This document shows positions 15,626-44,695 of a stretch of DNA of 64,000 bases, piece by piece. The notes under the pieces were generated by a model, which saw nothing but the letters and a program-made list of their open reading frames with translations, was not told where the DNA came from and ran no database searches. Both the position numbers and the translations under genes were made by a program. The DNA comes from Deltaproteobacteria bacterium (lineage in GTDB: Bacteria; Desulfobacterota; Deferrisomatia; Deferrisomatales; BM512). Location: contig PKTT01000039.1 in assembly GCA_002869015.1 (NCBI GenBank), positions 11,997 to 75,996 of the forward strand, read 5' to 3'. Position 1 is the first letter of the stretch; each line of letters starts with the position of its first letter.

Positions 15626-15640
15626 ACACAGATAAAAAAA

Positions 15641-17587: not shown

Positions 17588-18529
17588 ATGGTCAAGTATT
17601 CCCTCACCATTTTATTGTTGGTATTCTCGCTGTCGATTCCCTTTGCTGGTGCAACAAGGGCCGCAGAGGTGGGCCTTCACGCCACAATCTCAGATACCAT
17701 CGAGGAGTGGGCGCGAGCTACGGACGCCTTCTTTGGTGGCGAGGTCGCAGATTACGAGACCACGGGCACATACCTGCGAACAGGCATACAATGGGAGGCG
17801 CGTGACCACTCAACCCCCATGCTCTCCTACGATCTCAATCTTCACTTAAGGCTGCCTGTCGCGGAGCGCCGCTTCAACCTTTTCCTCCAGAGCGAAGATA
17901 CCGAGGAGGATGAGCAGCTTTCGGACACCCTGGGCGCCGCATCTGACCTGGCTGAGCGTTCGAGAGAATCAACATTCGCCGGGCTGGGGTATATATTCAC
18001 CGAGTCTGAAAAATGGAAATCCTCGATTATAGGGGGAGTTCGCCTCATAGACCCGCCCGATCCCTTTGTAAGATTCAAGCTGAGGCGCAGACAGATTGAG
18101 CTGGGCACGTGGCACTTCAGAGCAGACCAATCTGTTACCTGGCGAAATAACAGCGGCTTTTCCGAAGCTACCAATTTGTGGTTCGACAGGCCCATGGAGA
18201 ACAAGGTTCTTTTCCGCGCCAACACCTTTGCGACATGGGACGAGGAGGACCTTGAGGTCTTTACCGGGCAGACTTTCAACCTAATGTGGAGGGCGACAGA
18301 TGACCTCGGCCTCTCGGCGCTCACCGGCGTCCTCGGGGAGACTAAGCCTCACTGGCGTGAAACCCAGTATCTGCTCCTCTTTCCCGTACGCTATTTTCTA
18401 AAGGGAGAGTGGCTGATTTTTGGAGTCCGGCCCGGCGTTAGATGGCCCAGGGAGTACGATTTCAAGCCTGTGCGGGAGGTTCAATTCAGGATCGAGGCCT
18501 ATTTCGACGCAGAGCGCGTAAAGCGTTAA
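17588..18529 (+). CDS. Hypothetical exported protein, probable outer-membrane beta-barrel
   Basis: Signal peptide; alternating aromatic/hydrophobic strand pattern; ...FRIEAYF near C-terminus. Confidence 0.55.
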   Translation: MVKYSLTILLLVFSLSIPFAGATRAAEVGLHATISDTIEEWARATDAFFGGEVADYETTGTYLRTGIQWEARDHSTPMLSYDLNLHLRLPVAERRFNLFLQSEDTEEDEQLSDTLGAASDLAERSRESTFAGLGYIFTESEKWKSSIIGGVRLIDPPDPFVRFKLRRRQIELGTWHFRADQSVTWRNNSGFSEATNLWFDRPMENKVLFRANTFATWDEEDLEVFTGQTFNLMWRATDDLGLSALTGVLGETKPHWRETQYLLLFPVRYFLKGEWLIFGVRPGVRWPREYDFKPVREVQFRIEAYFDAERVKR

Positions 18530-27392: not shown

Positions 27393-28619
27393 GTGTTGAC
27401 AAAAAAAGCTGAACTTCTGGCCCCCGCCGGGAATTTCGAGAAACTTGAAATAGCCATACACTACGGAGCTGATGCCCTATACCTTTCCGGGCAGGAATTC
27501 TCGCTTCGCAATCTCTCGGGAAACTTTACCCCCGAGGAGCTAAAGCGCGGAATCGACCTCGCCCACGAGGCCGGGGTTAAGGTATACGTCGCCATCAACG
27601 CTTTTTTAAGGAACGCCGAACTTGACCTGCTGAGAGAGGAGGTAGCGCGCACCCGGGAGATGTCGCCCGATGCCTTTATAGTGGCCGACCCCGGAGCCCT
27701 ACAAATAGTGCGCGAGACCGCCCCCCAGGTCCCTATTCACCTATCGACTCAAGCAAACACCACCAACGCCGAGGCGGCGCGTTTCTGGCGCTCAGCGGGG
27801 GTTAGCCGGATTAACACCGCCCGGGAACTCTCCCTTCGGGAGATCTCTGAAATAGCAGCAGGGGTCGACATCGAGATAGAAGCCTTCGTCCACGGGGCCA
27901 TGTGCATATCATACTCCGGCAGATGCCTCATATCTGCGGCGTTGACGGGCCGGGACTCCAACCGTGGCGAGTGCACCCAGCCCTGCCGCTGGCGATACAG
28001 GCTTGAGGAGGAGACCCGCCCCGGCAAATATCTCCCGGTAATGGAGGACGGGCGGGGCACATATATAATGAACTCAAGAGACCTATGCATGGTCGGGCAC
28101 ATCCCGGCGCTCGTCGAAGCGGGGATATCATCATTTAAGGTCGAAGGGCGGATGAAGGGCATCGGCTACCTTGCCCCCGTAATCAAATGCTACCGCGAGG
28201 CTATTGACGCATATTACGAAGACCCTTCTGCCTTCACCGTCAAGGATGAGTGGCTGGAGGAGCTCTCCCGCGTTAACAGCTGGGGATACTCGACTGGTTT
28301 TTACTTCGGCGACCCGACGGAGATAGAACCAAATTTCGCAAATGAGCGTCCAACAACTGTCCACCGTTTAGCGGCTAAGGTTCTTAGTGGCGGGAATTCG
28401 CCAAAGGTAGATGTGAGAAACAAGGTCATTGCGGGTTCGGAAATTGAAATAATCGGGAAACGCGGAGAGGCAACAAAAGCAAAGGTGGAAAAAATAAGGG
28501 ACAAGTGGGGTGGCGAACTAAAAGAGGCGAACCCCGGCAAGCAGGTCACCTTTGAGTTGGGCGTCAATTGCGAGGTAAACGACCTCTTAAGGATAGGCGA
28601 AGATTACACGCACAGCTAA
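27393..28619 (+). CDS. Peptidase U32 family Fe-S protein (TrhP/YegQ-like tRNA hydroxylation)
   Basis: ELLAPAG, IHLSTQAN, HGAMCISYSGRC...NRGECTQPCRW, FKVEGRMK. Confidence 0.92.
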   Translation: MLTKKAELLAPAGNFEKLEIAIHYGADALYLSGQEFSLRNLSGNFTPEELKRGIDLAHEAGVKVYVAINAFLRNAELDLLREEVARTREMSPDAFIVADPGALQIVRETAPQVPIHLSTQANTTNAEAARFWRSAGVSRINTARELSLREISEIAAGVDIEIEAFVHGAMCISYSGRCLISAALTGRDSNRGECTQPCRWRYRLEEETRPGKYLPVMEDGRGTYIMNSRDLCMVGHIPALVEAGISSFKVEGRMKGIGYLAPVIKCYREAIDAYYEDPSAFTVKDEWLEELSRVNSWGYSTGFYFGDPTEIEPNFANERPTTVHRLAAKVLSGGNSPKVDVRNKVIAGSEIEIIGKRGEATKAKVEKIRDKWGGELKEANPGKQVTFELGVNCEVNDLLRIGEDYTHS

Positions 28620-30550: not shown

Positions 30551-31906
30551 TTATTTAGCGAGTGTTCCCCTCCTTAGTCTAGCTGTGTACTCAAAGGTTT
30601 TCTTTTCTCCTGGAGCCATGTTTAGGGTGTACTGGATAGTGTCGGCGTCCACTTTTTCATATTTTCCATAGTCACCCGCAGAGGCTACATCCCAGAAGTT
30701 CCACCCAAGATTCCTGCGAACCTCCACTGTGGACCTCTGCCCACGCAGATTCTCCACTTCGACCTTGTAGCTTAGGACATCCATATGGCCTTCGATGTAC
30801 TTCCTACCCGTCTGTTTATAGGTATTCCACTCGTACCCGTCCTTGGCGGAGCTCATCTCGGTAACCTTTACCCTGACGTCGCGGGTTACGCCCAAATTCA
30901 GGTTAACTTCGCCCTCCTTTGGGATGTACTTGGTCTCCCTCGCGCCGACAAATGTGAGCGCTCCATCATCTCCGCTCTCTCGAAACACCATCACAGCACC
31001 GCCGGGGATTGGCTCTCCGCCTAGTTTGTGTGCGGTGTCGTTGGCAAAGGAGATGAAGCGTATCACGCCCTCGCCATAACGCTCCGGCTCATATCGGTAG
31101 AGGCTCTCCACAGGTACGCTTTCAGCTGAGAAGGACGTAAGGCGTTTGCCCCAACCGTCATTGATCTCCTCGGTACCCTCAATGGTGTAGAGAAAATATT
31201 CACTGAGCCCCTCTTTGACAATCTCCTTGGGAGCCGCCCTGCCCATCATCATCTTTGCTACGGCACGGGGCGCGGCAACTTCATCGTTCTCCATCTCGTA
31301 TTGAATTTGAGGCATGGGGCGGCTTCCGATTGGCCGTCCATAGGGAGCGTCGCCCCTACGCGCAAGCTCCGCCACGCGGTCAAGAAGGTTTATCTTGCCC
31401 ACGATAAGGCGCGTCTCGGCGTTCGGGTAGTCCTCTCCGCTGCTGTTATTCACGAGGACGTAACCCTCAAGCTCCATGCTGGCTTCATCCTGGGAGAGGG
31501 TCGCCATGTAAAAGGCGCGCCAGCTGATGCCGCTTGTGAAATAGCTTATCTCCACGGGAACCGGCCCTGCGGCGCTGGCGGCTACATTCCAGACTCCTAC
31601 TCCCCCCACCCTCGCTGGATAGAGGAGGTCATTTACCAATATATCCCTGTCAAGCGCGCGGGGCAGAAGCTCCAGAGACGTTGGGTCAATGAGGGTCCCT
31701 GCCCAGCTGAACTGGAGTCTGTTCTCGCCTTCTCGCATGGTGAGCTTTCTCATATCTCTCGCCAGAGTGAGGTCGGCGGAGTTATAGATGGTTAGCTGGA
31801 CACGCTCCTGCTCTGGGAGGGTTACGAGGTCAACCTTTGCCAACGCAGCGGTGGGGAGGAGCAGAGAGATGACGAGGGCGACCTTGATTATGCTCTTTGT
31901 TTTCAT
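30551..31906 (-). CDS. Exported DUF4139-like protein
   Basis: Signal peptide, LTIYNSADLTLARD.R, SYFTSGISW.A.Y, NSSGEDY. Confidence 0.75.
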   Translation of the reverse strand: MKTKSIIKVALVISLLLPTAALAKVDLVTLPEQERVQLTIYNSADLTLARDMRKLTMREGENRLQFSWAGTLIDPTSLELLPRALDRDILVNDLLYPARVGGVGVWNVAASAAGPVPVEISYFTSGISWRAFYMATLSQDEASMELEGYVLVNNSSGEDYPNAETRLIVGKINLLDRVAELARRGDAPYGRPIGSRPMPQIQYEMENDEVAAPRAVAKMMMGRAAPKEIVKEGLSEYFLYTIEGTEEINDGWGKRLTSFSAESVPVESLYRYEPERYGEGVIRFISFANDTAHKLGGEPIPGGAVMVFRESGDDGALTFVGARETKYIPKEGEVNLNLGVTRDVRVKVTEMSSAKDGYEWNTYKQTGRKYIEGHMDVLSYKVEVENLRGQRSTVEVRRNLGWNFWDVASAGDYGKYEKVDADTIQYTLNMAPGEKKTFEYTARLRRGTLAK

Positions 31907-31916
31907 CGTCTCTCTC

Positions 31917-33047
31917 CTATCGGTTCCATATATCGCGGGTCAGGTTGCTATAAGCCAGCTCCCGCTTCTCACCGGGACCGAGGGCTACATATAATACAAG
32001 CTCGCTCGAACTTTTTCTCTCCCACTTGACGTTCGCCTCAGTAACCTCCCAATCTCCGCTGGGGTGCTCGACAATCTCCAGCGCAACCGGGGTGTCCTTG
32101 AAGTTCTCCACTCTAAAGGTAAAACGCTCAACCCTGTCACGCAGCACCGGGTCTTTGCGGCTGGGGCGATGGTTTAGCTCCTCATAGCCGATGCGTTTTT
32201 TTGTTACTTTGACATCGCGGCTAAAGCCTATCTTAACCCTCATCTTCGCCCCCGGCGGCGTGAAGTCAACGTTATCCTCTCCGAGGAAAATTGTCGCATC
32301 GTAGCCATCATCCTGGAAGATGCGCATCTTCCCCTCCCATAGGCTTCCCTGCCCCAGACCGGCGTCCGGTGTATTTATGAACTCGTAATAGACGGGGATC
32401 GAGACGTCGGACTCCTCCCGCTCCGGCTCCCACGGGAGATTATTTGAGTCCCAGAGGAGGGTTTTGGCCATTGGCACATCATTGGCACGAAAGAGCACCG
32501 CACGGCGGGTTTCGCCGCTAATTGAGGGGGTAGTCATGAGCGCGCCGCCATCCAGCGAGATCAGCGCCCCATCGAAATCCTCCCCGGAGAAGTTACGGAG
32601 CACCCCGAGCCCTGTTATGTCTAGCGTCGTCTCGGCCTTGTCAGCAACTGCCCTGTAGGCCACTAGACGGTCGATGTCGCGGAGAAGATAGCTAATCCTT
32701 ACCCTCTCCTCCAAGGGCGCTGCGGCGTTTATCCTCCAGATGAGGGCCGCCTCACCAGGCGGGTAGGAGACAGAGAGCAGGGTAACCGCTTCAGGATGGG
32801 AGAGCACCTTAAACCTTATGGAGTCGGGGTTTACGCTAACCCCACGCCAGGAAAAATCAACCAGATTCTCCCCGGCTTGAAGGGTCAGCACCCGCTCCTC
32901 CTCTATGAGGGTGGCGTCGGGGTTATCGAGGCGAATGGTAACTGATTCACGCTCGGGCAAAGCGGTTAGCTTGGTACGGGCCGATGCGCCGGAGGTTAAC
33001 GCCAGCACCATGAGGGCGGCTAAAAAGGATGGCAAAAGCTTCTTCAT
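31917..33047 (-). CDS. Exported DUF4139-like protein (paralogue of downstream gene)
   Basis: Signal peptide, LIEEER.LTLQAGEN.V.FSW.G..I/NP.S, NFSGEDF; similar to 30551..31906. Confidence 0.72.
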   Translation of the reverse strand: MKKLLPSFLAALMVLALTSGASARTKLTALPERESVTIRLDNPDATLIEEERVLTLQAGENLVDFSWRGVSVNPDSIRFKVLSHPEAVTLLSVSYPPGEAALIWRINAAAPLEERVRISYLLRDIDRLVAYRAVADKAETTLDITGLGVLRNFSGEDFDGALISLDGGALMTTPSISGETRRAVLFRANDVPMAKTLLWDSNNLPWEPEREESDVSIPVYYEFINTPDAGLGQGSLWEGKMRIFQDDGYDATIFLGEDNVDFTPPGAKMRVKIGFSRDVKVTKKRIGYEELNHRPSRKDPVLRDRVERFTFRVENFKDTPVALEIVEHPSGDWEVTEANVKWERKSSSELVLYVALGPGEKRELAYSNLTRDIWNR

Positions 33048-33359
33048 CTCGGCTCCTCCGGTTAGGATTTATTTCACCAACTATATCACCTAATAGTCTT
33101 TTGGTAACAGCTAAGGGAGGACAGATGAGTTTGAGACGATGAAGTGGGCAATTAAGTATTAACTTTCACTGCCTCCCTCTTCTTCTTTCAATCTATTCAT
33201 ATGGTTTAAAAAGAGTGTTGCACAAATATTATAGACTATAAAAATGCATGCTGTATGGAAGATATAGAGTCGCGCCTGTACCAATTTCCACTGAGTTTGG
33301 GTATATTTGCCAAGCGGTTTTACGTAGCGGGTTTCTACTCGCTTCCCTGCCGCTATAAG

Positions 33360-33376
33360 CAGGCACACCTCTTGCT
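33360..33376 (+). promoter_or_regulatory. sigma54 promoter of the AAA/FmdE operon
   Basis: CAGGCACACCTCTTGCT: GG(33362-3)-N10-GC(33374-5), matches (T)GGCAC-N5-TTGC, ~55 nt before ATG 33430. Confidence 0.7.
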
Positions 33377-33429
33377 TTATCCTAGAGGACTCAACTCAAC
33401 TAACACGGAACCCCAACTGAGGAACCGAT

Positions 33430-34311
33430 ATGCACCGTAAGCTAGATAAGATTTTCTACGAGGTAAAAAAACCAACCCTTACCTGGGATGATATAGGCGG
33501 CTTTGCCGAGGTGAAGCAGCTGGTAAAGGAGATGGTCTCCCTGCCACTGATGAAGCCTGAGCTGATGAAAAAGGTGGGCCTTCAGCGCCCCGCCGGGGTC
33601 ATGCTCTGGGGGCCGCTTGGTGTCGGAATAACGATGCTCGCGGAGGCCGCCGCAACCGAGGCGGGTGTCTCCTTTGTCTACGTTTCCGGCCAGGAGATGC
33701 TAGGAAAGCCGGAGCAGGTTAAGGAGGCTTTCCACGACGCCGTGCATGAAGCCCCCTGTGTACTCTTCATCTCCGATACTGAGTGGCTATGCCCACGCGC
33801 CGGCTGCTCCTACGAGTGGGGGCCGGGAAACCTCCGCGGAATCCCGCCGACCTTCGCCGACAAGGAACTCTCGGAGCTCTTTATCCGCGAGATTGACAAG
33901 ATTCAGGAGAATGAAAACGTTATGCTCGTAGGCTCCTGCTACCGCATCGACACCGTGGATCAGGCGATAATCAAGGAAAAACGACGCTTCAACCGCAAGA
34001 TTTTCGTTCACCCCCCCCGCGCAATCGATCGAGAGGGGATGATTAAGATATACCTCGACAAGATGCCCTCGGTGGACCCGCGTGTGACCGCTGAGGAGCT
34101 CTCTCACAAGACAGAGGGCTATGTGGGATGGGACGCCGAATCGCTCTGCAAACGAGCGGCGCTTGAGGCGGTTATGGCGGACCGGGACGTGGTAACTCTG
34201 GAAGATTTCGAGAAGGCGCTGACCCAGGTTGAGCCATGGCTGACACCTGACATGACCGAGGTCTACCTGGAGATTGACAAGAATGACTGCCCCCACCATT
34301 ACGCTTTCTAA
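33430..34311 (+). CDS. Single-domain Cdc48/PAN-like AAA protein with degenerate Walker motifs
   Basis: TWDDIGG..EVK..VKEMV.LPL..PE, GVMLWGPLGVGIT, PCVLFISDTE, RRFNRKIFV.PP, TEGYVG.D..LC..AA. Confidence 0.85.
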   Translation: MHRKLDKIFYEVKKPTLTWDDIGGFAEVKQLVKEMVSLPLMKPELMKKVGLQRPAGVMLWGPLGVGITMLAEAAATEAGVSFVYVSGQEMLGKPEQVKEAFHDAVHEAPCVLFISDTEWLCPRAGCSYEWGPGNLRGIPPTFADKELSELFIREIDKIQENENVMLVGSCYRIDTVDQAIIKEKRRFNRKIFVHPPRAIDREGMIKIYLDKMPSVDPRVTAEELSHKTEGYVGWDAESLCKRAALEAVMADRDVVTLEDFEKALTQVEPWLTPDMTEVYLEIDKNDCPHHYAF

Positions 34312-34741
34312 AGAGGAGCGCAGGACGTTCTTCGACGCCCTAAAGATGCTCCACGGGCACCGCTGCCCCATGTCTATCCTTGGGGCACGCCTTGGGCTGG
34401 CGGCGCGCGCCCACGTCGGACGGCATGGCGAGAGCGGCGACGTTACCGCCCTCTACCACCACCAGACCTGCGCTATAGATGGCATCCAGCTGGCCCTGGG
34501 CACCACCGGGGGCAATAAAAATATCGAGGCGCGCCCCGAGGGTGAGCACCGCCTCACGGCGACCAACAAGACCAAGCGTATGTACATAACGGTTAGGCTC
34601 TCCGAAGAGGCCCTGAGGCGCGGCAAGGAGTACGCTGAGCTTAGGAGCGCTGGCGGCGATCCTGTGAAGATGGAGGAGATACTCCTAGGCCTTGAGGAAG
34701 CTCCGGAGGAGGAGCTTGTCGAGGTGTTGGAGCGCATCTGA
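34283..34741 (+). CDS. FmdE family protein
   Basis: HGHRCPMSILGARLG, TCAIDGIQ...T.G..N; overlaps upstream stop (TTG 34274 alternative start). Confidence 0.85.
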   Translation: MTAPTITLSKEERRTFFDALKMLHGHRCPMSILGARLGLAARAHVGRHGESGDVTALYHHQTCAIDGIQLALGTTGGNKNIEARPEGEHRLTATNKTKRMYITVRLSEEALRRGKEYAELRSAGGDPVKMEEILLGLEEAPEEELVEVLERI

Positions 34742-35691
34742 TGGAGATCGCAAAGGAGTTTTTACATATAGTCCTCACTGAAGCGGGGAAGATGTGGTGG
34801 TTCACCCTCATCGGCGTCACCGTGGCGGCGCTCATAAAAACTTACCAGCTGGATAAAAACGTAAGAAAATACGTAGGCCGCTTTGGCGTCCTCTCAATCC
34901 TGGTTGCTACCGCTATTGGGGCATTCTCCCCGCTTTGCTCATGCGGAATCCTGCCAATAATAATTCCAATGGCGCTCTCCGGCGTGCCACTACCACCGCT
35001 TATGGCGCTCCTGACGACCTCACCGGTGATGGATCCCAGCTCATTTTTCCTTACCATGGGAGGTGTAGGCGAGGAGCTCGCCTGGTGGAAGTTCGGTGGT
35101 GCGATTTTTCTGGGGCTCTCCTCTGGGTTCGTTACTCTTTTTCTTGTGCGCACAGGTTATTTTTCTGGAAACATTGTGCGAATGAAGCCGGTACATACTG
35201 ATGAGGGCGAGTTGGCCTCCGCCTATGAGATTGGGTGCGCCAACAACCTCATTTTAAAGACGATGACAGTCAAGCCTCGTGAATCGAAGCTCTTATTTTT
35301 TATAGATCGATTCCTCGATGTAGGGCTTTTCGTAGGAATGTGGGTTGCGATAGCCATAGTTTTGGAGGCGGTGATCCAGCTCTTCGTTCCCATTAACTGG
35401 GTCACTTGGCTTGTCGGCAAGGAGGGGATGACCTCCGTTGTTGCGGCGGCGCTGGTCGCGCTTCCGCTGCCTGCGCACCAGGTCCCGGTGGTGCCTATTC
35501 TCGCCGGGCTACAAGCAAAGGGGATATCCGTTGGCGCGGATATTGCTTTTTTAATGGCCGGACCGGTAACTTCAATTCCGGCGATTGGAGCACTTTCGGC
35601 GATCTTCTTGCCGCGAGTGGTGGTATCATTCATAATTACAGGGCTTGCGGGTTCCATCATCCTCGGCGCATTGAGAATGGGCTTTGGATGA
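34741..35691 (+). CDS. DUF318/ArsP-type permease
   Basis: SPLCSCGILP...MALLTTSPVMDP, AFLMAGPVTSIP; multiple TM helices; TGATG coupling. Confidence 0.85.
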   Translation: MEIAKEFLHIVLTEAGKMWWFTLIGVTVAALIKTYQLDKNVRKYVGRFGVLSILVATAIGAFSPLCSCGILPIIIPMALSGVPLPPLMALLTTSPVMDPSSFFLTMGGVGEELAWWKFGGAIFLGLSSGFVTLFLVRTGYFSGNIVRMKPVHTDEGELASAYEIGCANNLILKTMTVKPRESKLLFFIDRFLDVGLFVGMWVAIAIVLEAVIQLFVPINWVTWLVGKEGMTSVVAAALVALPLPAHQVPVVPILAGLQAKGISVGADIAFLMAGPVTSIPAIGALSAIFLPRVVVSFIITGLAGSIILGALRMGFG

Positions 35692-35759
35692 CGAACCTTG
35701 CGTCACTTATTTGATTTAATGACGAATTACCGACGGAACACCATACAAAGGAGTCGGCA

Positions 35760-37223
35760 ATGAAACGTTTAACCATCTCCCTAATAGCGGCCGCGCTAGC
35801 GGCAGGCCCCGCCTTCGCGGGCGCTCCACTCTTCACCGATATAACCTCCAAAGCCGGGGTTGGTGATGCGGGCAACGGCAAGGGCGTGGCGTTCGCCGAC
35901 ATCGACAACGATGGCGACTGGGACCTTTACGTGTCAAACAAAGGCGGCGCCAACAAGCTCCTTCGCAACGACGGCAAAGGCGTCTTCACTGACATAACCG
36001 CTGAAGCGGGTGAGGGAGTAGGTGACGCTGGCTTTGTCATGGGCTCCGTTTTCTTCGACTTTGACAACGACGGCTGGACCGACCTCTACCTCCCCAAAGG
36101 CGGCAGGTATGAGATTGAAGCAAACCGCCTCCTCAAAAACGTTGGCGGCACCTTTGTCGACGTAACGGATAAGGCGGGCGTAGGCTCCAAGGAGTTCACC
36201 TACGCAGCGGCTTCAGCCGATTTCGACAATGACGGCTTCCTCGACCTCTACCTCGCAAATTACGGAGTCGGCGCGAAGAACATTCTTTACAGAAACAACG
36301 GCGACGGCACCTTCACCGACGTGACGGATAAAGCGGGCGTAGGCGACCGCTCATGGTCATGGATGGCCGTATGGGCTGATGTAAACGGCGACAACAAGCA
36401 GGACCTTTACGTTGTCAATGGCCGCTACCCGGCCGGTGAACCAAACACCCTCTATATCAATAACGGCGACGGCACCTTTAGCGACGCCTCCCGCACCTCC
36501 GGCATCGCCGACAACGGCTGGGGTCTTGGCGCAGCCTTTGCCGACACCGATAAGGACGGAGACCTTGACCTCTTTATCTCCAACTATGTCGGCCCCAACG
36601 GCTACTTCATAAATGACGGCACCGGCGTCTTCACCCCCGCTGGTGAGAGCGCAGGCCTTGCCGATACAGGCTGGGGCAAAGGCCCCACCTTCGGCGACTT
36701 CGATAACGACGGCGACCTGGACCTCTACGAGGGCGACTGCAAGGTAGCCAATCAGCTATACAGAAACAACGGCGACGGTACCTATACCGACATAGCTCAA
36801 GATAGCCCCTCGACCCGTTGCGCAGCCGTGCGCACCAAGGGCACAGCTTTTGTAGACATCGACGGTGATGGCGACCTCGACCTATACGCCGTCAACTGGG
36901 CCGCCGAGAACAAGCTCTTCTTAAACTCGACAAACAATGGCAACTGGCTGAAGGTTCGCCTCACCGGCACCCTCTCCAACGCAATGGGGGTCGGCTCGCG
37001 CGTATGGGTACGCTCCGGCTCCAAGGTTGAGGGCGTTGCCGAGATGGCGACCTCTTCAGGGTTCTGCGCCCAGCCTCCCCAGGAGCTACATTTCGGCGTA
37101 GATGCATCTAAGACTTACACCGTTGAAGTGCGTTTCCCCAGCGGACAGGTTAAGGTAATTGAGAACGTTACACCCGGACAGGTCCTCACAGTTGAAGAGC
37201 CCGGCAAAGTGGCCCTCCGCTAA
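35760..37223 (+). CDS. Secreted FG-GAP/VCBS-repeat protein with ASPIC/UnbV C-terminal domain (CRTAC1 family)
   Basis: Seven D.DNDG..DLY repeats, N.GDGTFTDVT.KAGV, C-terminal GFCAQ...LHFG....VEVRFPSG. Confidence 0.9.
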   Translation: MKRLTISLIAAALAAGPAFAGAPLFTDITSKAGVGDAGNGKGVAFADIDNDGDWDLYVSNKGGANKLLRNDGKGVFTDITAEAGEGVGDAGFVMGSVFFDFDNDGWTDLYLPKGGRYEIEANRLLKNVGGTFVDVTDKAGVGSKEFTYAAASADFDNDGFLDLYLANYGVGAKNILYRNNGDGTFTDVTDKAGVGDRSWSWMAVWADVNGDNKQDLYVVNGRYPAGEPNTLYINNGDGTFSDASRTSGIADNGWGLGAAFADTDKDGDLDLFISNYVGPNGYFINDGTGVFTPAGESAGLADTGWGKGPTFGDFDNDGDLDLYEGDCKVANQLYRNNGDGTYTDIAQDSPSTRCAAVRTKGTAFVDIDGDGDLDLYAVNWAAENKLFLNSTNNGNWLKVRLTGTLSNAMGVGSRVWVRSGSKVEGVAEMATSSGFCAQPPQELHFGVDASKTYTVEVRFPSGQVKVIENVTPGQVLTVEEPGKVALR

Positions 37224-38310
37224 TAGACGGCATCAACCGACAAAAGGGAGGCTGCCAGGCAGCCTCTTTTTTTGTATAACCATCCTCCTCTTTTTAGGTG
37301 GATGCGCCTCGGTTGGGCCTACAGATGATTTTAGCGAGTTGGTAACCATTGAGGGGCTGGTCTCCCTTGAGGGCAAGGGGTATAAGGGGGCAAATGTTTC
37401 TTTATATCCTTTAGCTGAATTTACAAAGCCAGGTGAACCTGCTCATTTAACCCAAACAGAGAGCAAAGAGAGTGGCGTTTTTTTGCTCAAGGCCCCTGCG
37501 GGGGATTACCTGATAACCGCCCGGAGCCACTCCGGCGACCTCTTTGCGTTTTTCGGCAGGAATCCTTTAAGGGCGGGTGCCCACCAGCGTGGACTCACCC
37601 TGCCGCTCGTTCCGGCACACCCCCCCATATTTTTGAAAAATGAAACCGACACATCGATTATAACGGGGCGGGTCCTCCATCAAGGCAACCCCGTAGCCGG
37701 AGCTAAGGTTGCGTTATATCTATCTGCAGAGGCAGGCTTTAGGGGCCAGCCTTACGATTTCTCTGCGCCCACAGATAAAGATGGCAAATTCTCCATGATA
37801 ATTGACCCTGGCAGTTACTTCGCCACTGTAAAGATGCGCGCTTCCGGTAGGGATATCGGTCCGCTTAAACCCGGCGACCTCTTCGGCATCGCTCCGGGGC
37901 TACGCATGACAATTGAACGAGGGGTGACTGTAAATGCCGATATTGAGTTACTGGCGCTGCCCTCCCGAGAAAAACAGGCGCGCTTTCTGACAAAATTCGC
38001 TACGGTTGAGGGAACTGTAACGGATGCTACCGGGGCGCCCCAGGCTGGCATGCGCGCGGCGCTTTACGAAAACAAGAACATGCTTGGAGAGCCCCTACTC
38101 CTATCTGAACCGACAGGGCCCGATGGCAAATTCAACATATCCACCAGCCTAACCGGAAAGCTTTACCTCGGCGTGAGAGAGTTCATAGGCGGCCCTCCCT
38201 CCTCTGGGGAGCGTGTCGGCTTTGCCGATGGGCCTGACAATGGCCGCTTTAACCTGACGCCAGGCGTAAATGTCGAAGGGGTTAAAATAATAGCGAGGCT
38301 AACTCCATGA
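37192..38310 (+). CDS. Lipoprotein with three carboxypeptidase-regulatory-like (CnaB/SdrD-type) domains; start uncertain
   Basis: LGGC lipobox; repeated I.G.V...G.P.AGA.V.LY...PT..DGKF units; in-frame TTG at 37159 or 37192. Confidence 0.7.
   Translation: MKSPAKWPSANRRHQPTKGRLPGSLFFCITILLFLGGCASVGPTDDFSELVTIEGLVSLEGKGYKGANVSLYPLAEFTKPGEPAHLTQTESKESGVFLLKAPAGDYLITARSHSGDLFAFFGRNPLRAGAHQRGLTLPLVPAHPPIFLKNETDTSIITGRVLHQGNPVAGAKVALYLSAEAGFRGQPYDFSAPTDKDGKFSMIIDPGSYFATVKMRASGRDIGPLKPGDLFGIAPGLRMTIERGVTVNADIELLALPSREKQARFLTKFATVEGTVTDATGAPQAGMRAALYENKNMLGEPLLLSEPTGPDGKFNISTSLTGKLYLGVREFIGGPPSSGERVGFADGPDNGRFNLTPGVNVEGVKIIARLTP
37242..37273 (+). terminator. Terminator-like hairpin after the CRTAC1 gene, inside the next gene's signal-peptide region
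   Basis: GAGGCTGC-CAG-GCAGCCTC followed by T7. Confidence 0.65.
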
Positions 38311-40139
38311 GGACCTTAGCCGCATTCGCTCTTTTACTTGCAAGCATCCTCTCCTTATGTGGATGCTCTTCAGCACCTCTTAAATCGGATGCGGACTCGA
38401 AAAACATAACGTGGTCAGGGATTGTCGAAGTAAAGGAATCCATAACCTTCCCTAGAGGTACAACTTTAAAGATAAACCCCGGCACAACGGTAAAATTTGC
38501 TACTACGGACATAGACGGCGACGGCCTTGGAGACATATCCCTAACCCTTGAGGAGGGTACTCTCCAGATAGATGGCACACTAGCTTCGCCAGTCACCTTT
38601 ACAACACTTGACAGAGCCCCAAGCCCCGGCGACTGGGGAGAGCTCAGGCTGGACTTTTCACGCCTTGCGGTTAAATATCTGATCCTTGAGGGTGCGACGA
38701 GGGGACTTCATCTACACTTCACATCGGGAGTTGTCGAGGACTCATTGTTCCGCGACAACCTGGATGCAACGAGGATAGGCGAATCGAAGGTAAATTTCGC
38801 CAGGTGCCTTTTTAGCCAGAACTCCGGCAAAGGCTATAATTCGCGCACCTCGGAGAACACGCTTAAGGGTTCGTGGTTCCGCAATAATAGGCGTGGGCTC
38901 TTTCTCTTTGAGGGGGACAAGGGCTCAGACCTCTCCGGGAACCTCTTTAGCGGCAATGATGTCCCACTGCGCCTTGGCGATTTTTACGCGGGAAGGGTCA
39001 GGACAACCGGCAACCAGTGGGAGAAGGACCCCATTCCCACAAGCACTGTCAGCCCTGAAGCGACGTTATCCATAGAACCAGGCGTGGTATTTGAAGCAGG
39101 GCCTCTGGGTTGGCCCCTCCTTAAAGAGGGGTGGAGAGTCGATACCGGGGGTTTCGTCGATGCACTCGCCGGAGGCGAGCTGGGGCTATATTTTCCCTCT
39201 TGGGACGGCACCATAAACAGGGTTGGCCTCTTCGACGGTACAAAGATTGCGGGAACATCAATTGGCGACATTAGCGACTCAGCTCCAGCTCTTGGAAAAT
39301 TAGAGGGTCGCTATTATCTTGCTTTACAGGGGTGGGACCGCTCCATACGCCTTCTGGACGCAATTACCCTTGAGGAGCTTGACTCATTTACCGAGGCCCC
39401 CTCCCCTGCGGATGACCACCGACAGTCCTCCCCTCTATTTATTGCCGGGGACTTAACCGTAGCTACATGGGCTGGCCGGGTATATTCATTTAAAGTGCTG
39501 GATGACAAACTTGTCGAGAATTGGAAGGTCGAAGCATCGGCACCGGTCAGGGCCGACCTGACCTTAATCGAGTCAGCTGATGGAAAAACAATCCTCGTCC
39601 CGCTGGAGTCCGGCACGTTATTGGCATTAAATTATGTCACGGGGATTGAGCGCTGGCGCTTCAATGCCTCTGCCCCACTGATATCAGGGGCTGCGGTGGA
39701 TAGTTCACGGGTTTTTATTGCGGACAAAAATGGCTCGCTATACTCCCTCTCTCTTGAGGGGAAACTCCTTTGGAGCAGAGAGATTCCCGGGGGTGCCTGG
39801 TATGCGCCGCCGCTGATCAATGAGGGCACCATATACCAGGGCAACGATTCGGGCAGCTATTCCGCCTATGACGCGGTCACAGGAGAAGAGCGCTGGCAGG
39901 CTATCCTTGATGGGGGAATTAGGGGTAGCGGCGCTGCAATAAAGAATACCATAGCGGTCGCAACCGCTGGCGGCAGCCTATACCTCATCGACGCAGAGAG
40001 CGGGTTGGTGCGTGACAGGATGAAGTTGGGTGACGCTGTACTCTCCTCTCCCTTGATTATTGGCGAGAGACTTTATGTAGGAACAAGGCCCGGGGCGGTA
40101 CACTCTTTCACGGTTGAAAACGTCAAAAGTGCTTATTAA
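38307..40139 (+). CDS. Lipoprotein: right-handed beta-helix plus PQQ-type (BamB-like) beta-propeller
   Basis: LCGC lipobox, TWSG...TLKINPGTTVKF, DIDGDG, F..N repeats; C-terminal G.L.AL...TG.ERW repeats; ATGA overlap. Confidence 0.78.
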   Translation: MRTLAAFALLLASILSLCGCSSAPLKSDADSKNITWSGIVEVKESITFPRGTTLKINPGTTVKFATTDIDGDGLGDISLTLEEGTLQIDGTLASPVTFTTLDRAPSPGDWGELRLDFSRLAVKYLILEGATRGLHLHFTSGVVEDSLFRDNLDATRIGESKVNFARCLFSQNSGKGYNSRTSENTLKGSWFRNNRRGLFLFEGDKGSDLSGNLFSGNDVPLRLGDFYAGRVRTTGNQWEKDPIPTSTVSPEATLSIEPGVVFEAGPLGWPLLKEGWRVDTGGFVDALAGGELGLYFPSWDGTINRVGLFDGTKIAGTSIGDISDSAPALGKLEGRYYLALQGWDRSIRLLDAITLEELDSFTEAPSPADDHRQSSPLFIAGDLTVATWAGRVYSFKVLDDKLVENWKVEASAPVRADLTLIESADGKTILVPLESGTLLALNYVTGIERWRFNASAPLISGAAVDSSRVFIADKNGSLYSLSLEGKLLWSREIPGGAWYAPPLINEGTIYQGNDSGSYSAYDAVTGEERWQAILDGGIRGSGAAIKNTIAVATAGGSLYLIDAESGLVRDRMKLGDAVLSSPLIIGERLYVGTRPGAVHSFTVENVKSAY

Positions 40140-40169
40140 GGCAGCAAATTCAGATATAGGGAGTATGAA

Positions 40170-40730
40170 GTGAAGAAGAATATTTTTGCCGTTATTGTGG
40201 CGCTACTTATACCGATGGCTGCTCTAAGCTGTGTCGGGAAATCACTTGTGGTTGGGACAGATTCCTCTCCTAAGAGCAAAGTTGTGGCGCAGGTATTAGC
40301 TATCTTGATAAATGAACGGACGGGAACAACCGTACAGATCATAGACCACGAAACCCCAGAGGCGCTTTTTAAGGAGATGCGTGATGGTGACGTGGATATA
40401 GCCCTTCAGTATGCGGGTAGCGCCCTAAAGAGGGATGGCAAGAATGTTGGCAGCGATGCGGCGGCTACATACGAACTGGCTAAGCAGCATTACCAGTCCG
40501 CTTGGAACCTGGCTTGGCTACCCCCACTCGGTTTCACCGAGGAGGGAGATGCAGATTCTCTTGCTGCGCCAGTTGCGCAAAAACATGCTTTAAAAAAATT
40601 CCCCGCACTCCCCAGGCTAATCGCTAAAACCGAGGGAACCCTCACCGGCGCAACAGTAAAAGAGCTTGCAGGAGCAGACTCCATACCTCGTGCCGTACGG
40701 GAATTTCTCAAGAGCAACAAGTTAATTTAA
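40170..40730 (+). CDS. Short OpuAC-like (glycine betaine SBP-like) exported protein
   Basis: Signal + CVGK; LVVGT...VVAQVLAILI.ERTG...GDVDI..QYAG...NLAWLPPLGF; only 186 aa. Confidence 0.65.
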   Translation: MKKNIFAVIVALLIPMAALSCVGKSLVVGTDSSPKSKVVAQVLAILINERTGTTVQIIDHETPEALFKEMRDGDVDIALQYAGSALKRDGKNVGSDAAATYELAKQHYQSAWNLAWLPPLGFTEEGDADSLAAPVAQKHALKKFPALPRLIAKTEGTLTGATVKELAGADSIPRAVREFLKSNKLI

Positions 40731-40749
40731 TCCTCTCTCCCAAGCAAAG

Positions 40750-40783
40750 AAGAGGGCGTCGCGTAAACGGCGCCCTCTTTTTT
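40750..40783 (+). terminator. Intrinsic terminator closing the operon
   Basis: AAGAGGGCGTCG-CGTAAA-CGGCGCCCTCTT-TTTT. Confidence 0.8.
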
Positions 40784-40906
40784 ACTCTATTCTACGTGTA
40801 TTTAAAGGCCGCTGTTGGCACACTTCATAATGTATTTTTTCTATGTAGATATTGACCAATTCGATAAGTACGGTTAAATTGCTAGTACAACCCTACGATA
40901 TACAGG

Positions 40907-41845
40907 ATGAAAATGATGCGAATATTTGACGACAACAGCCAATCCATAGGAAATACCCCCCTTGTTAGGGTCAACAACCTGACTAAAGGACTTAAAGCGA
41001 CCGTGCTGGCAAAGGTCGAAGCTAGAAACCCTGCCTTTTCAGTCAAATGCAGGGTTGGTAGAAATCTGATCCTCGACGCTGAAAAAAAGGGCGTAATTAA
41101 ACCGGGCATGACGATAGTCGAGCCAACAAGCGGCAATACGGGGATAGCTCTTGCCTTTGTTTGCGCGGCGCGTGGGTATAAGCTCGCGCTCACCATGCCG
41201 GAGACAATGAGCGTCGAGCGGCAAAAGCTGCTAAAAGCCTTTGGCGCGGAGCTTATTTTGACTCCTGGCTCAAAGGGCATGGGCGGCGCAATCGCAACCG
41301 CCACGGATATGGCGGCAGAGGACCCCTCCAGATTCTATATGCCTGACCAATTCTCAAACCCCGCAAATCCTGAAATTCACTTTATGACTACCGGACCTGA
41401 GATATTCTCCGATACGGATGGCAAGGTCGATTATTTCGTCTCCGGGGTTGGCACCGGCGGCACAATCACCGGCGTATCCCGCTACCTGAAGGGGGAGAAA
41501 GGTCTTGCCGTGACCTCAATAGCTGTGGAGCCTGAGGCATCTCCTGTGCTGAGCGGCGGCTCTCCGGGCCCCCACAAAATTCAGGGTATAGGCGCCGGCT
41601 TCAAGCCCGCGACACTCGACCTCTCTCAAGTTGACAGGGTATCTACGGTAGCCGATGAGGCGGCCATGGAGACAGCGCGCAGGCTCGCCCGCGAAGAGGG
41701 CATCATCTGCGGCATATCTAGCGGCGCGGCCATGGCGGCAGCGCTGGAGCTTGCAGCAAAAGAGGAGGCTGCGGGCAAGACAATCGTCACGATACTTCCC
41801 GATTCAGGCGAGCGCTACCTCTCCACACAGCTCTTTGAAGTCTGA
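40907..41845 (+). CDS. cysK: Cysteine synthase A
   Basis: [51 protein letters not shown]. Confidence 0.95.
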
Positions 41846-41914: not shown

Positions 41915-44695
41915 TCACCTTGCTCTCTTCTTAAAATGGTAGTCGAGAAGGTTGTCGAAGTGGCCCAGAAGCTCAAAGGAGGGCCTCTTGACCGCTACTT
42001 CGCAAAGCTCAATATACCTCTTCACGATAGTCGCGAAGAGCGGAATTGAGGTTCCAATCCGCTTTGACATCGGCAGACGCATGACCCCAAGGGCCACCTC
42101 AAGATGCTCTATACCCCCTGCCAACTCACCTGATATTGCGTATAGCTCAGCTACCTGCCCGTGCGCGGCGGCAAGCTCAAGCGAGTACCCATCTGGGTTG
42201 GCGTCAACGAGTTTTTTAAACTCTGAAATAGCTACTTTGACAGATGCAATCCCCTTCTCAACCAACCCCGCCTCCCCCATAATCCTGCCAAGGTTGGCCA
42301 AAGAAGCTGCATGTCGCTCCAAAAATGCCGCCGGGCGAACGCTAGCAAGCTGCTCATGAATCTCAGAGGAGCGCGAAGCAGCAGAAAGAGCCTTCTCCGG
42401 GGCGAGGTTAAGATCAGTCAGCGCCGCCAGATTGTTGAGGGCAGTGGCGTAGGGCACGGCAAACCTAGTGCGTCCCTCCACAAGTAGGGACTTATAGAGC
42501 GACAGCGAACGATTTGCCACCTTTTCACCCTGCTCACACCTGCCGCTTCTAAGAAGCTCAGCCGCCAGGTTGTTGAGCGCAAGGGCAAGGTCATCCTTCC
42601 ACACATCGGCATTTCGCTGTGAGAGGCGTTCATATATCTCCACCGCTTCCACCGCTGCGGGCACCGCTTTGGACGCCCTGCCAAGCGCCCCATATATCGG
42701 TGTTACGTTGGTTAACGCCGCTGCAAGCTCCGCGTCAAATGCATCCGGATTCTTCTCAGAGAGGCCGCGCAAAAAGCCAATGGCGCGCTCAGCTGGAGCT
42801 AAAGCCTCATCCCACTCTCGCAGTCTGGCGTGGGATATGGCGAGATTATTAAGGGCCTGTGCAAAACCGGGCACATATACCCTGGGGTTGCTGCGCGCCA
42901 GCTTCTCCCACTGCTTCACCCCCTCCTCGGCAGCCTCAAGGGCGCGGCGATAGCTCCCCGCGTGATGTTGATATGCTGCAAGATTTGTCCAAGCGCCAGC
43001 TAGCTCCGCCTCCTCCTGACCACCCTCTTCCTTAGCCAGATCAGTACGGATTTGCACCACCCTTAGCCCCTCTTTAGCGGCATTCACGGCTTTGCCCTGA
43101 ATAGCTTCAAAGGCTGCAAGGTTGTTTAGGCAGTTGGCGAGCCTTCTATAGTTGGAGGGGTCATCCTCGACCAGCTTGCTGTATGCTTCAACCGCGCGCC
43201 GCGCAGTCTCAAGGGCGCCGCTGACGTTTCCAAGCTCAAAGTTGGCTACCGCGAGGCGATTCATCGTATCCGCACGTACTGAAGCATAAGCTGGTGTCTG
43301 AGGTAATTTAAGAACGAGGGTCTCGTGGAGGGCTATCCCAAAGGCGGCGAGGTTTGAGTTTCTAAGTGAGGTCTGGCGGGAAACCCATATAAGCTCGTCG
43401 ACGGGCCGCTCACTTAGCACCATGTCTAGCCAATGCTTTACCAGCTCAAAACCCTTTATGCCGGAGATGTCTCCAGTTGTCCTTATGAGATTGAGCCACA
43501 CCAGCTCCGGGTCCACCCCTATTGCGAGCTCTATGCACTCATCCATCTGGGCTTTGTATTCGGAGAGCACCAGCACTCCGAAAGCGCCATTTATGAGGTC
43601 GTGGATAATCGGAATGTAAAGCTGTCGTCCATCTTCGACGCCGCCACGCCCCGCCGTGGCCTTCAGCCCCATCAAGGTGCCGTCAATAGCGGTCTCGGAG
43701 GCGCCAAGGCTCAGCGCATCTGCCCGCAGGAGATTTATAAAGCCGTCATCTTTGCTGTCACGGGCTCCGCAAAAGGCAAGGTAGGCAACGGCACGCTCAA
43801 CCAAGATGGGGTCGGCCCCCTTTGGGCATAGGCCCCTAACCGCAGCGCGCTCCCTTGAAACTGCCCACTGAAGGAGGTCACCCTGGTCCCAATCGGTGAT
43901 ATTTACCGCAGAGCCCGTCTCACAGGCCCTTATCGCAGCAAGTTGAAGGTATACGGGGTTTCGGTCGGTATTTAAACGAAGGGCCTGCAAGGAATCCCGG
44001 CTTAAGGTGGGAAGCCGTGGGGCCTCCTTCTGGCAGAGGTCAGACCACGCGTCAAGGGTCTCCTGTAGGATTTCGACCATCGTATTATCGGGGTCTTCCC
44101 TGCCGGGAAAGCCAAGCCTTAACGGCATCTCCATCGACGACTGAACGGCTTCCCACTCTGCGCCGCTGAGGCGTTGCAGCATCTCCCCGAACCACCCGGC
44201 TTCAACTGCCGCCCTGCGCTCTATGAGGATTAGCCGCACCCGCTTGCCGCTATTTCGCCCCTCTTCCCTACCCCATTTGGCGAAGTGAACTATGAGGGTC
44301 TCAAGAACATCGGATTTTCGCGCCGCATTGTCGATTATCATCAAGGTGTTCTGAAGAGGTCTGAATGAGGCAAATTCGGGGGATTTAACCCAGGCGTCCA
44401 GGGCATCGCCGGGCACGAAACCTGCGAGCCATCCTTCTGAAGATGCTTTTGCCGCTGCCTCCTGGGTCAATCTGGTCTTGCCCACCCCGCCATTACCAAA
44501 GACAGTAAGCCATCTAAATGGCGCGCCGGAGTTACAGAAGCTGTCAATCCCCTCAAGCTCTGCGCCCCTACCTACAAGGGGGAGGAATGAGGCGGAGGGG
44601 TGCAGGAGGCTTCCCGGCCTCTCGGGGATTATAAGATGTGCGGTATTCGCAAGATATATAGGCGCGTCCATTAGCCCACCCGTATTTGAATTCAT
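41915..44695 (-). CDS. STAND-like P-loop NTPase with C-terminal TPR repeats
   Basis: PLVGR, GNGGVGKTRL (Walker A), LMIIDNA (Walker B), RLILIER; ~8 LA..LNNLA TPR units; start may be ATG 44671. Confidence 0.8.
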   Translation of the reverse strand: MNSNTGGLMDAPIYLANTAHLIIPERPGSLLHPSASFLPLVGRGAELEGIDSFCNSGAPFRWLTVFGNGGVGKTRLTQEAAAKASSEGWLAGFVPGDALDAWVKSPEFASFRPLQNTLMIIDNAARKSDVLETLIVHFAKWGREEGRNSGKRVRLILIERRAAVEAGWFGEMLQRLSGAEWEAVQSSMEMPLRLGFPGREDPDNTMVEILQETLDAWSDLCQKEAPRLPTLSRDSLQALRLNTDRNPVYLQLAAIRACETGSAVNITDWDQGDLLQWAVSRERAAVRGLCPKGADPILVERAVAYLAFCGARDSKDDGFINLLRADALSLGASETAIDGTLMGLKATAGRGGVEDGRQLYIPIIHDLINGAFGVLVLSEYKAQMDECIELAIGVDPELVWLNLIRTTGDISGIKGFELVKHWLDMVLSERPVDELIWVSRQTSLRNSNLAAFGIALHETLVLKLPQTPAYASVRADTMNRLAVANFELGNVSGALETARRAVEAYSKLVEDDPSNYRRLANCLNNLAAFEAIQGKAVNAAKEGLRVVQIRTDLAKEEGGQEEAELAGAWTNLAAYQHHAGSYRRALEAAEEGVKQWEKLARSNPRVYVPGFAQALNNLAISHARLREWDEALAPAERAIGFLRGLSEKNPDAFDAELAAALTNVTPIYGALGRASKAVPAAVEAVEIYERLSQRNADVWKDDLALALNNLAAELLRSGRCEQGEKVANRSLSLYKSLLVEGRTRFAVPYATALNNLAALTDLNLAPEKALSAASRSSEIHEQLASVRPAAFLERHAASLANLGRIMGEAGLVEKGIASVKVAISEFKKLVDANPDGYSLELAAAHGQVAELYAISGELAGGIEHLEVALGVMRLPMSKRIGTSIPLFATIVKRYIELCEVAVKRPSFELLGHFDNLLDYHFKKRAR

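Follow-up and report, generated by a model that had tools for sequence, protein, structure and literature searches.

Do seven neighbouring genes, whose predicted products range from the cytoplasm to the periplasm, form one system, and if they do, what does that system handle? The question is raised by a 64,000-nt stretch of DNA from a Deltaproteobacteria bacterium of the order Deferrisomatales (phylum Desulfobacterota; assembly GCA_002869015.1, contig PKTT01000039.1, positions 11,997 to 75,996), referred to below as the window. The genes, here called g1 to g7, encode in turn an AAA+ protein, an FmdE protein, an ArsP_1/DUF318-type permease, an FG-GAP/ASPIC propeller protein, a lipoprotein with a carboxypeptidase-regulatory-like domain (CPD), a beta-helix/propeller lipoprotein and one half of a substrate-binding protein (half-SBP). 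A first-pass annotation, made from the letters of the window, had read them as a sigma-54-controlled module for trafficking of a metal or chalcogen across the envelope or for metalloprotein maturation, with a composition matched by no named system. What it observed was confirmed as a whole, and its interpretation was partly supported. We conclude that these genes form the core, though not the whole, of a system common to several phyla of anaerobic bacteria.

Conservation and co-inheritance of the seven genes

In a first sample, 18 of the 21 genomes from the window's order had an orthologue of the AAA gene, and the 20 from elsewhere in the phylum had none; AAA proteins 74-99% identical to g1 are also present in public records of metagenome-assembled genomes (MAGs) from Deltaproteobacteria or Deferrisomatales. 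A scan with one genome per species returned 19 AAA loci. Among 401 genomes of the phylum, 19 carry the gene, 12 in the order and seven in four other families, as do eight of 301 Nitrospirota genomes. Altogether the carriers represent five or more lineages of the phylum at family level, in addition to Nitrospirota.

Gene order was compared across 17 loci of the order, each from a different genome, and across a wider set of 37 AAA-centred loci. The FmdE and permease genes follow the AAA gene in 17/17 loci of the order, and g5-g6-g7 are present in 14; of the three misses, a contig end truncates two, and in the third cysK stands directly after the permease gene. Within the order the FG-GAP gene is adjacent only in the window's own family (5/6 loci, the sixth being cut). 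In one family of the order a NapH- plus NapG-like polyferredoxin lies between the half-SBP and cysK. Across the 37 loci, the most frequent neighbours of the AAA gene were CPD and beta-helix genes (26 loci each), followed by the permease (23), FmdE (22), half-SBP (19), FG-GAP (14), cysK (11), NapH/NapG-like polyferredoxins (9), a pair formed by a U32 gene and a divergent U32-like partner (7), and PhnD-like and YedE genes (4).

Rows in other lineages combine these families in several ways. Family f102 repeats the six-gene row of AAA, FmdE, permease and g5-g6-g7 in 2/2 loci, and two unplaced MAGs have U32, U32-like, AAA, FmdE, permease and FG-GAP genes in that order. In family f53 the row consists of FG-GAP and, after an interruption, CPD, U32, U32-like, AAA, half-SBP, two beta-helix genes, CPD, beta-helix, PhnD-like, YedE and permease genes; in family f32 AAA and half-SBP genes are followed, again after an interruption, by beta-helix, CPD, beta-helix, PhnD-like, YedE and permease genes. 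YedE, a putative selenium transporter, lies within 10 kb of the AAA gene in two loci of the window's phylum, one in each of these families. The Nitrospirota row reads AAA, small CPD, FG-GAP, CPD, beta-helix/propeller and then more copies, with gaps of 290-800 nt between the AAA gene and the next. Two related Nitrospirota loci have PhnD-like, TPR, YedE and cysteine desulfurase genes preceding the AAA gene. The desulfurase scores above the cut-off of TIGR01977, in the cysteine-desulfurase/Sec-lyase family, and a YedE protein of the Nitrospirota neighbourhood reaches 384 bits against a cut-off of 200 for TIGR04112. YedE plus desulfurase directly upstream was rejected as a general trait, being confined to these two closely related loci and not seen in the other six.

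Further genes were seen beside individual loci. The U32, U32-like, AAA row of the Actinomycetota loci is followed by a short gap (10885-11122 in locus L040) and a nitroreductase gene, and in L040 a 1970-aa subtilase with PKD repeats precedes it. In Nitrospirota locus L037 the segment at 3086-5438 on the minus strand, upstream of the cluster, encodes a TsuA-like thiosulfate transporter (245 bits against a cut-off of 400); an upstream beta-propeller gives a weak match of 32 bits to a lactonase-type nitrous-oxide reductase model.

Inheritance of the components was then counted in the 401 genomes of the phylum. Eighteen have an FG-GAP orthologue: 17 of the 19 AAA carriers and one of the 382 others, which belongs to the same order as the window. 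The half-SBP occurs in 25, comprising 19/19 carriers and 6/382 others, and the U32-like partner in 30, including 15/19 carriers. Where the AAA locus lacks the FG-GAP gene, the gene was found elsewhere in 4/5 genomes at 63-76% identity; there it adjoins either EB_dh, CPD, HEAT and polyferredoxin genes or three CPD genes and a beta-helix gene. These results show that the genes are co-conserved and co-inherited, also where the AAA and FG-GAP genes are far apart. Homology and gene neighbourhood across genomes identify a co-conserved unit and no chance row.

The AAA+ protein as a predicted pseudo-ATPase

The best solved relative of g1 is the D2 domain of archaeal VAT/Cdc48 (5vc7, 149 bits for that domain), and the NCBIfam models for CDC48, PAN and FtsH score 130-159 bits against cut-offs of 500-800. 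When g1 is aligned with VAT, motifs of an active AAA+ ATPase are altered. GPLGVGIT aligns to the VAT Walker A sequence GPPGVGKT and departs from the pattern GxxGxGK[ST], with I67 in place of the lysine in 22/22 aligned members; Actinomycetota members read GIK, with the Lys displaced by one position. FLDEID of VAT aligns to FISDTE, which converts the Walker B DE to SD, and ATNRPD aligns to SCYRID, which places Tyr at the sensor-1 Asn. A gap of 4 residues takes the place of WVGE in pore loop 1, followed by an insert of ~10 residues, and the first Arg finger is replaced by Lys. The 22-sequence alignment covers five named phylum-level groups and the two unplaced MAGs, and its members are 54-89% identical to the window's copy; across phyla the protein is 53-66% identical. 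The inactivating changes are found in all 22, and S115, D116 and Y171 are conserved. The first-pass description of g1 as a degenerate AAA protein is borne out by this alignment, from which g1 is predicted to be a pseudo-ATPase without the residues for ATP binding, hydrolysis and substrate threading.

The protein shares its fold and lid domain with the classic-clade AAA+ proteins (VAT, p97-Cdc48 D2, PAN, FtsH). It differs from them in the lost Walker A, Walker B and sensor-1 residues and pore loop 1, the Lys at the Arg finger, the insert, a DCPHHYAF tail and its single-domain architecture. The tail is nearly invariant, with C287 and H289 invariant and P288 and H290 kept in at least 90% of the 22 sequences. 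Among the Cys/His motifs that had been singled out, those of FmdE, the permease, the half-SBP and the AAA tail (CPHH) are kept in orthologues; the two cysteines of the AAA CPRAGC motif are not conserved in the same alignment. At E<=1e-60 the family counts at least 360 clusters, and the members listed are all ~293 aa long; no fused form was seen among longer proteins at E<=1e-70, which is weak evidence, and an ESM Atlas search with the AAA protein returned only generic AAA clusters. Prediction of an AAA-FmdE complex gave a score of 0.01 against a mark of 0.32 and was not used as evidence either way.

FmdE and the permease

The putative metal site of g2 is intact. H27, H29, C31, C66 and D69 are invariant in 14/14 orthologues, which supplies the H-x-H-x-C...C ligands expected of an FmdE protein that scores above the Pfam gathering threshold, and binding of a metal is predicted from them. 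The HGHxC site proposed from the sequence therefore stands: the ligand set matches the motif and the Zn/Ni site ligands given in the FmdE study (PMC2954224), where most FmdE genes are also reported to adjoin genes for metal-ion transporters. Like the FmdE proteins B8FYU2_DESHY and Q9HJ63_THEAC, g2 has a FHGHxC-type motif, a distal Cys, an Asp/Gln/Thr dimer motif and a transporter neighbour. It differs from PF02663 proteins of this kind in having no C-terminal zinc ribbon, in overlapping the gene of the inactivated AAA protein and in having a DUF318/ArsP_1 permease as partner. Family scans of the neighbourhood found no formylmethanofuran dehydrogenase genes near the cluster.

The permease g3 contains Cys66-Ser-Cys68, and at least 14 of 15 orthologues retain the surrounding SPLC.CG. 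The Cys-Ser-Cys motif is described as a feature of SO_0444/SaoE relatives in a preprint (10.1101/2022.07.06.499078). On g3 the SaoE model gives 86 bits against a cut-off of 325 and the SO_0444 model 79.5 against 300, so that neither equivalog is reached. g3 shares its Pfam family and this motif with ArsP, SO_0444 and the SaoE protein of the SAO locus. It reads without a selenocysteine codon, and SaoA, SaoP, SaoB, SaoX, SaoL, SaoT and SaoC were not matched in the cluster by Pfam or NCBIfam.

The exported components

Signals for export or lipoprotein processing are predicted for all of g4 to g7. The propeller of g4 has DxDxDG calcium-type loops and resembles CRTAC1 (cartilage acidic protein 1), its only solved relative (9etn, E 7e-19), with which it shares the FG-GAP propeller plus ASPIC architecture. 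g4 differs as a bacterial subfamily co-inherited with an inactivated AAA+ protein; neither it nor its animal relative CRTAC1 has a known function. Across phyla g4 is 46-76% identical, and its conserved Cys and His residues are C327, C436 and one His.

The start of g5 is uncertain between TTG codons at 37159 and 37192. Conservation among 18 sequences is confined to structural G, Y and P residues, without any Cys or His, and no solved relative was found by sequence. The earlier description of g5 as CnaB-like did not hold, Pfam placing it with the transthyretin-like sandwiches of CarboxypepD_reg.

An AlphaFold2 model of g6 (pLDDT 90.4, pTM 0.89) shows a right-handed beta-helix followed by an 8-bladed propeller, in agreement with the PQQ_2 match and with the beta-helix-plus-propeller lipoprotein originally proposed; the Pfam Beta_helix score lies just under its cut-off (23.1 against 25.9). 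The nearest structures to the propeller in Foldseek are BamB and YxaL, and tetrathionate hydrolase is also listed. Invariant residues in 18 sequences are H135, H137, S366 and D369-D370-H371-R372-Q373, so that conserved Cys/His positions are limited to H135, H137 and H371.

A truncated binding protein had been recognised in g7, and the truncation is a conserved state: the 186-aa length and both ends are kept in 16 sequences, with FLKxxKLI at the C-terminus. Residues C21, V22 and G23 are invariant in 16/16, the Cys standing directly after the signal peptide. Sequence matches in the PDB cover about half of OpuBC/EgtUC chains, and the model (pLDDT 88.9) forms one lobe of an OpuBC/EgtUC-type protein, with TM scores of 0.77 by query and 0.53 by target length. 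By profile and by model alike, g7 is half of the two-lobed OpuAC type.

Sister loci and selenium genes in the same genome

The 2.53-Mb genome as a whole provided a control for chance association. In a tblastn search it gave five CPD-family and five beta-helix-family matches only, and all five of the former and four of the latter fall in three loci that share further families: the window and loci on contigs C37 and C64 (Table 1). The C37 locus contains the sole YedE copy of the genome (333 bits against a cut-off of 200), placed between g5-type and g6-type paralogues, as well as a radical SAM/SPASM member of the GeoRSP system (407 against 400 bits) paired with PqqD. No YedE (TIGR04112) member was found inside the window's cluster in Pfam and NCBIfam scans. 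The AAA-type U32 gene, its partner and a TIGR01977 desulfurase lie on contig C55, unlinked to the AAA gene, and the members of the U32 pair are ~60 kb apart. A U32 gene of the window (27393-28619) was considered as the AAA-linked U32 and rejected, being a full-length paralogue with the U32 C-terminal domain.

Use of selenocysteine by this genome, which the first-pass annotation had suspected, is supported by selD on contig C56 (L057): the gene has an in-frame TGA, so that selenophosphate synthetase is itself a selenoprotein.

Transcription signals and limits of the cluster

The seven genes have the family assignments, with Pfam scores over the gathering threshold for all seven, and the overlapping, apparently coupled arrangement described for them (Table 1). 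The open reading frames (ORFs) of g1 and g2 overlap by 38 nt, those of g2 and g3 by 1 nt and those of g5 and g6 by 4 nt; g4 and g5 overlap by 65 nt provided that the TTG at 37159 is the real start of g5. Gaps of 68 nt and 30 nt separate g3 from g4 and g6 from g7. No NCBIfam equivalog was reached by any of the seven proteins, and an Rfam scan of 32900-41000 at E<=1 gave only a chance match on the terminator, with no riboswitch or leader.

Table 1. Features of the cluster, its borders and its sister loci. Positions are those of the window, except for the contig C37 locus.
Feature	Position	Strand	Description
Sigma-54-type promoter motif	33362-33375	+	GGCAC-N5-TTGC, GGCACACCTCTTGC; 55 nt before the g1 ATG
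g1	33430-34311	+	AAA + AAA_lid_3 (Pfam, above gathering score); 293 aa
g2	34274-34741	+	FmdE (Pfam, 63.6 bits, cut-off 22.9); 155 aa, single-domain
g3	34741-35691	+	ArsP_1 (Pfam, 120 bits, cut-off 32.3); ArsP_1/DUF318-type permease, 316 aa
g4	35760-37223	+	FG-GAP_3/FG-GAP + UnbV_ASPIC (Pfam); 487 aa, cleavable signal peptide (predicted)
g5	37159-38310	+	CarboxypepD_reg, also DUF4198 and transthyretin-like matches (Pfam); lipobox LGGC
Hairpin	37243-37268	+	GAGGCTGCC-AGG-GGCAGCCTC then T7; perfect 9-bp stem, 3-nt loop; directly after the g4 stop
g6	38307-40139	+	PQQ_2 and marginal NosD (Pfam, 23.7, cut-off 23.6); lipobox LCGC
g7	40170-40730	+	OpuAC, profile positions 1-120 of 257 only (Pfam); 186 aa
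Intrinsic terminator closing the operon	40746-40783	+	16-pair stem, 8 G-C, T run
cysK	40907-41845		TIGR01139, 454 bits, cut-off 351
Contig C37 locus (L059)	7795-18404	-	sigma-54 response regulator, EB_dh, CPD, HEAT, NapH-like polyferredoxin, unknown, PhnD/TtrS-like binding protein, TPR, YedE, beta-helix, PqqD, radical SAM
Contig C64 locus			CPD x3, beta-helix, DUF362, polyferredoxin

The sigma-54 motif was located correctly in the earlier reading of the window. Taken alone it is not beyond chance: the pattern has one match in the window against 0.48 expected, at least one match in 41 of 100 shuffled sequences, and 23 sites genome-wide. The promoter call is supported by its conservation, since GGCAC-N5-TTGCTT, with the -24 GG and -12 GC elements at the correct spacing, precedes the orthologous AAA gene by 61-170 nt in 6/6 genomes of the window's family while the flanks have diverged. 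We propose on this basis that the operon is sigma-54-driven in that family. A search with the strict pattern gave no match ahead of the AAA gene in the 10 loci from high-GC families of the order. What loci of those families (L015, L022, L027, L023, L024 and L021) have in common is a TGTCAAGGC-like word, placed 10-25 nt ahead of the AAA start codon; the intergenic region there is ~80 nt long, with a divergent gene on its other side (Hsp20 in L015). Besides rpoN, the genome has 16 genes for sigma-54 activators, none of them on the window's contig; one activator, a response regulator, heads the paralogous locus on C37. A further activator beside the C64 locus was set aside as a pilus regulator, flanked as it is by a PilS-type kinase and T2SSE/F secretion genes.

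The hairpin between g4 and g5, whose stem the terminator scan of the window lists on the minus strand, lies within the predicted 5' end of g5 and encodes the hydrophobic core of its signal peptide. It may act as an attenuator, or as a partial terminator that splits the operon into g1-g4 and g5-g7. The strong terminator reported after the seventh gene was recovered, and cysK lies behind it with a promoter-like site of its own. The link to cysK stands as to its position directly downstream and does not stand as to membership: the genes are separated by the terminator, and cysK adjoins the AAA locus in 11/17 loci of the order and in 0/20 elsewhere. We rejected it as a member of the system, and it appears to be a separate transcription unit.

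Divergent from the cluster, at 30551-33047 on the minus strand, are tandem paralogues of 451 and 376 aa with weak matches to the mucoidy inhibitor MuiA. This pair was likewise rejected as a member, having been found only in a locus of the same genus. On the other side, at 41915-44695 on the minus strand, a 926-aa ORF with the P-loop GNGGVGKT and a long helical repeat-like sequence looks by eye like a STAND-type NTPase; it is 94% identical in a genome of the same genus.

Comparison with known systems

The claim that no named system has this composition was upheld in family libraries and in literature searches. Two further partial parallels were found. The accessory apparatus of the Nos system, with NosD and the donors NosGH/NosR, resembles the loci in combining a NosD-type beta-helix with NapH/NapG-like polyferredoxins and a propeller protein; the function in that parallel would be maturation of a periplasmic metal-sulfide centre. 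The Nos system differs in that g6 matches NosD marginally, falls short of TIGR04247 and has its beta-helix fused to an 8-bladed propeller. NosZ, the NosF/NosY ABC pair and NosL were not seen in the loci that were annotated, and neither the seven genes nor the sister loci gave any match to an ABC transporter. The second parallel is with UbiU-UbiV pairs, which the U32 gene and divergent partner that precede the AAA gene in 7/37 loci resemble; here the difference is that the UbiU model gives 78 bits against a cut-off of 440 and that the pair is unlinked to the AAA gene in this genome.

What the system may handle

The reading that we put first, tentatively and as plausible though short of probable, is a modular envelope-spanning system that handles a thiol-loving element, either a soft metal or sulfur/selenium. 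That such an element crosses the inner membrane is suggested by the His2Cys2 site of FmdE, the Cys-Ser-Cys permease and the recurrent YedE, desulfurase and TtrS/PhnD-like proteins, and an input of electrons by the polyferredoxins and the EB_dh protein. The inactivated AAA protein would serve as a cytoplasmic scaffold or adaptor. FmdE would hold the thiol-loving species (soft metal or a species of sulfur or selenium) and hand it to, or take it from, the Cys-Ser-Cys permease, and g4 to g7 would receive, present or transform it in the periplasm, with g6 anchored in the membrane. Sister loci would supply electrons through NapH/NapG-like polyferredoxins and an EB_dh haem-type protein, and a second membrane route through YedE and a PhnD/TtrS-like binding protein. 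The idea of a chalcogen cargo gains indirect support from YedE and the desulfurase near the AAA gene elsewhere and from YedE in the paralogous C37 locus.

Several observations weigh against this reading. The 8/8 Nitrospirota loci have no FmdE or permease gene at the AAA locus and the 3/3 Actinomycetota loci have the AAA gene with only the U32 and U32-like pair, so that the core partner of the AAA protein need not be FmdE. YedE and PhnD genes lie within only 4/37 AAA loci. Almost no Cys or His is conserved in g4 to g7, which is unusual for soft-metal carriers, and proteins that bind glycans have beta-helix, propeller and carboxypeptidase-regulatory-like folds just as typically. Of five AAA-bearing genomes searched for selD at E<=1e-20, two gave no match, and one of these two is a complete chromosome of 2.16 Mb with the AAA-FmdE-permease-FG-GAP row. 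Related genomes, finally, are non-independent samples, and the profile counts overstate the support that they give.

A bolder form of the proposal, drawn partly by analogy and in our view doubtful, is that the genes encode a new kind of envelope-spanning machine, in which an obligately inactive cytoplasmic AAA+ ring would be permanently paired with a CRTAC1-like calcium propeller and beta-helix lipoproteins of the periplasm and would work with Cys-lined permeases (DUF318-type and YedE) and quinol-fed polyferredoxins. Such a machine might either mobilise and import an insoluble chalcogen (S0, Se0 or polysulfide) reductively or build a periplasmic metal-chalcogenide centre, comparable to CuZ assembly with unrelated parts.

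Alternative explanations

Export or detoxification of soft metals is the alternative that survives best, and we consider it unlikely. FmdE would pass Cu-, Zn-, Cd- or As-type ions to the permease, the lipoproteins would sequester them and the AAA protein would act as a regulator or adaptor. The intact metal site of FmdE fits this scheme, as does the fact that the nearest named relatives of g3 are the efflux proteins SaoE and the SO_0444 Cu/Zn family; the scores of g3, however, are far under both curated cut-offs. No sensor of the MerR, ArsR or CsoR type was found in the cluster by Pfam or NCBIfam, and the periplasmic proteins are without conserved thiol ligands. A simple pump would also leave unexplained the almost perfect co-inheritance of a remote FG-GAP gene and the links to polyferredoxins, YedE and the U32 pair.

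The cluster might instead be an envelope or glycan module, in which proteins of the g4-g6 type act on a polysaccharide or other surface polymer and the cytoplasmic trio is only loosely linked. Polysaccharide lyases, hydrolases and binding modules often have folds of the beta-helix, propeller, FG-GAP/ASPIC and carboxypeptidase-regulatory-like kinds. The invariant residues of g6 (Asp-Asp-His-Arg-Gln, two His and an Asn ladder) resemble a catalytic or sugar site rather than a thiolate site, and its propeller matches BamB and YxaL best. Set against this, Pfam and NCBIfam find no glycosyl hydrolase, lyase or transferase family among g4 to g7, redox and S/Se-type genes, and not sugar genes, abound around the cluster, and the periplasmic genes are co-inherited with a cytoplasmic, inactivated AAA protein. 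We regard a glycan function as distinctly improbable.

A dedicated pathway of selenium acquisition or trafficking that feeds SelD would account for YedE and the Sec-lyase-like desulfurase beside the AAA gene in the two Nitrospirota loci, for YedE near it in f53 and f32, and for the single YedE of this selD-bearing genome between g5 and g6 paralogues; selD is also present in two of the three small Actinomycetota genomes with the AAA gene. YedE has been linked to SelD and Sec lyase by Lin et al., 2015 (PMC5322559). The role of YedE is itself unproven, and work on Methanococcus was able to tie no selenium species to it (PMC11097638). A role in selenium alone is contradicted by the two carriers that lack selD, one with a complete chromosome, and YedE accompanies few of the loci; we give this pathway little credence.

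That there is no system, and that two or three independent operons lie side by side by descent, is very improbable and is disfavoured by the data: the hairpin and T run between g4 and g5, the wide gaps after the AAA gene in Nitrospirota and the origin of most synteny in one order would fit it, but the same families surround the AAA gene in varied order and orientation in at least six lineages and are co-inherited when unlinked.

Significance

No description of this combination of components was found in the literature searched, whose coverage left out most subscription papers, and the gene system has apparently not been described in print before. About 5% of the sampled genomes of the phylum carry the gene set, which also occurs in scattered Nitrospirota, Actinomycetota and other subsurface anaerobes. 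The almost perfect co-inheritance of a cytoplasmic pseudo-enzyme with a periplasmic CRTAC1 relative points to a process across the inner membrane that lies beyond current annotation. Named carriers include cultured iron- and sulfur-respiring bacteria, in which ordinary genetics is feasible; among those named are Deferrisoma camini, Desulfuromonas versatilis, Geoalkalibacter ferrihydriticus, G. halelectricus and Geothermobacter ehrlichii. If the thiol-loving cargo that we favour is the true one, the system would add a route for the handling of sulfur, selenium or soft metals in anoxic sediments and vents, and would provide a definite role for the FmdE and DUF318 families.

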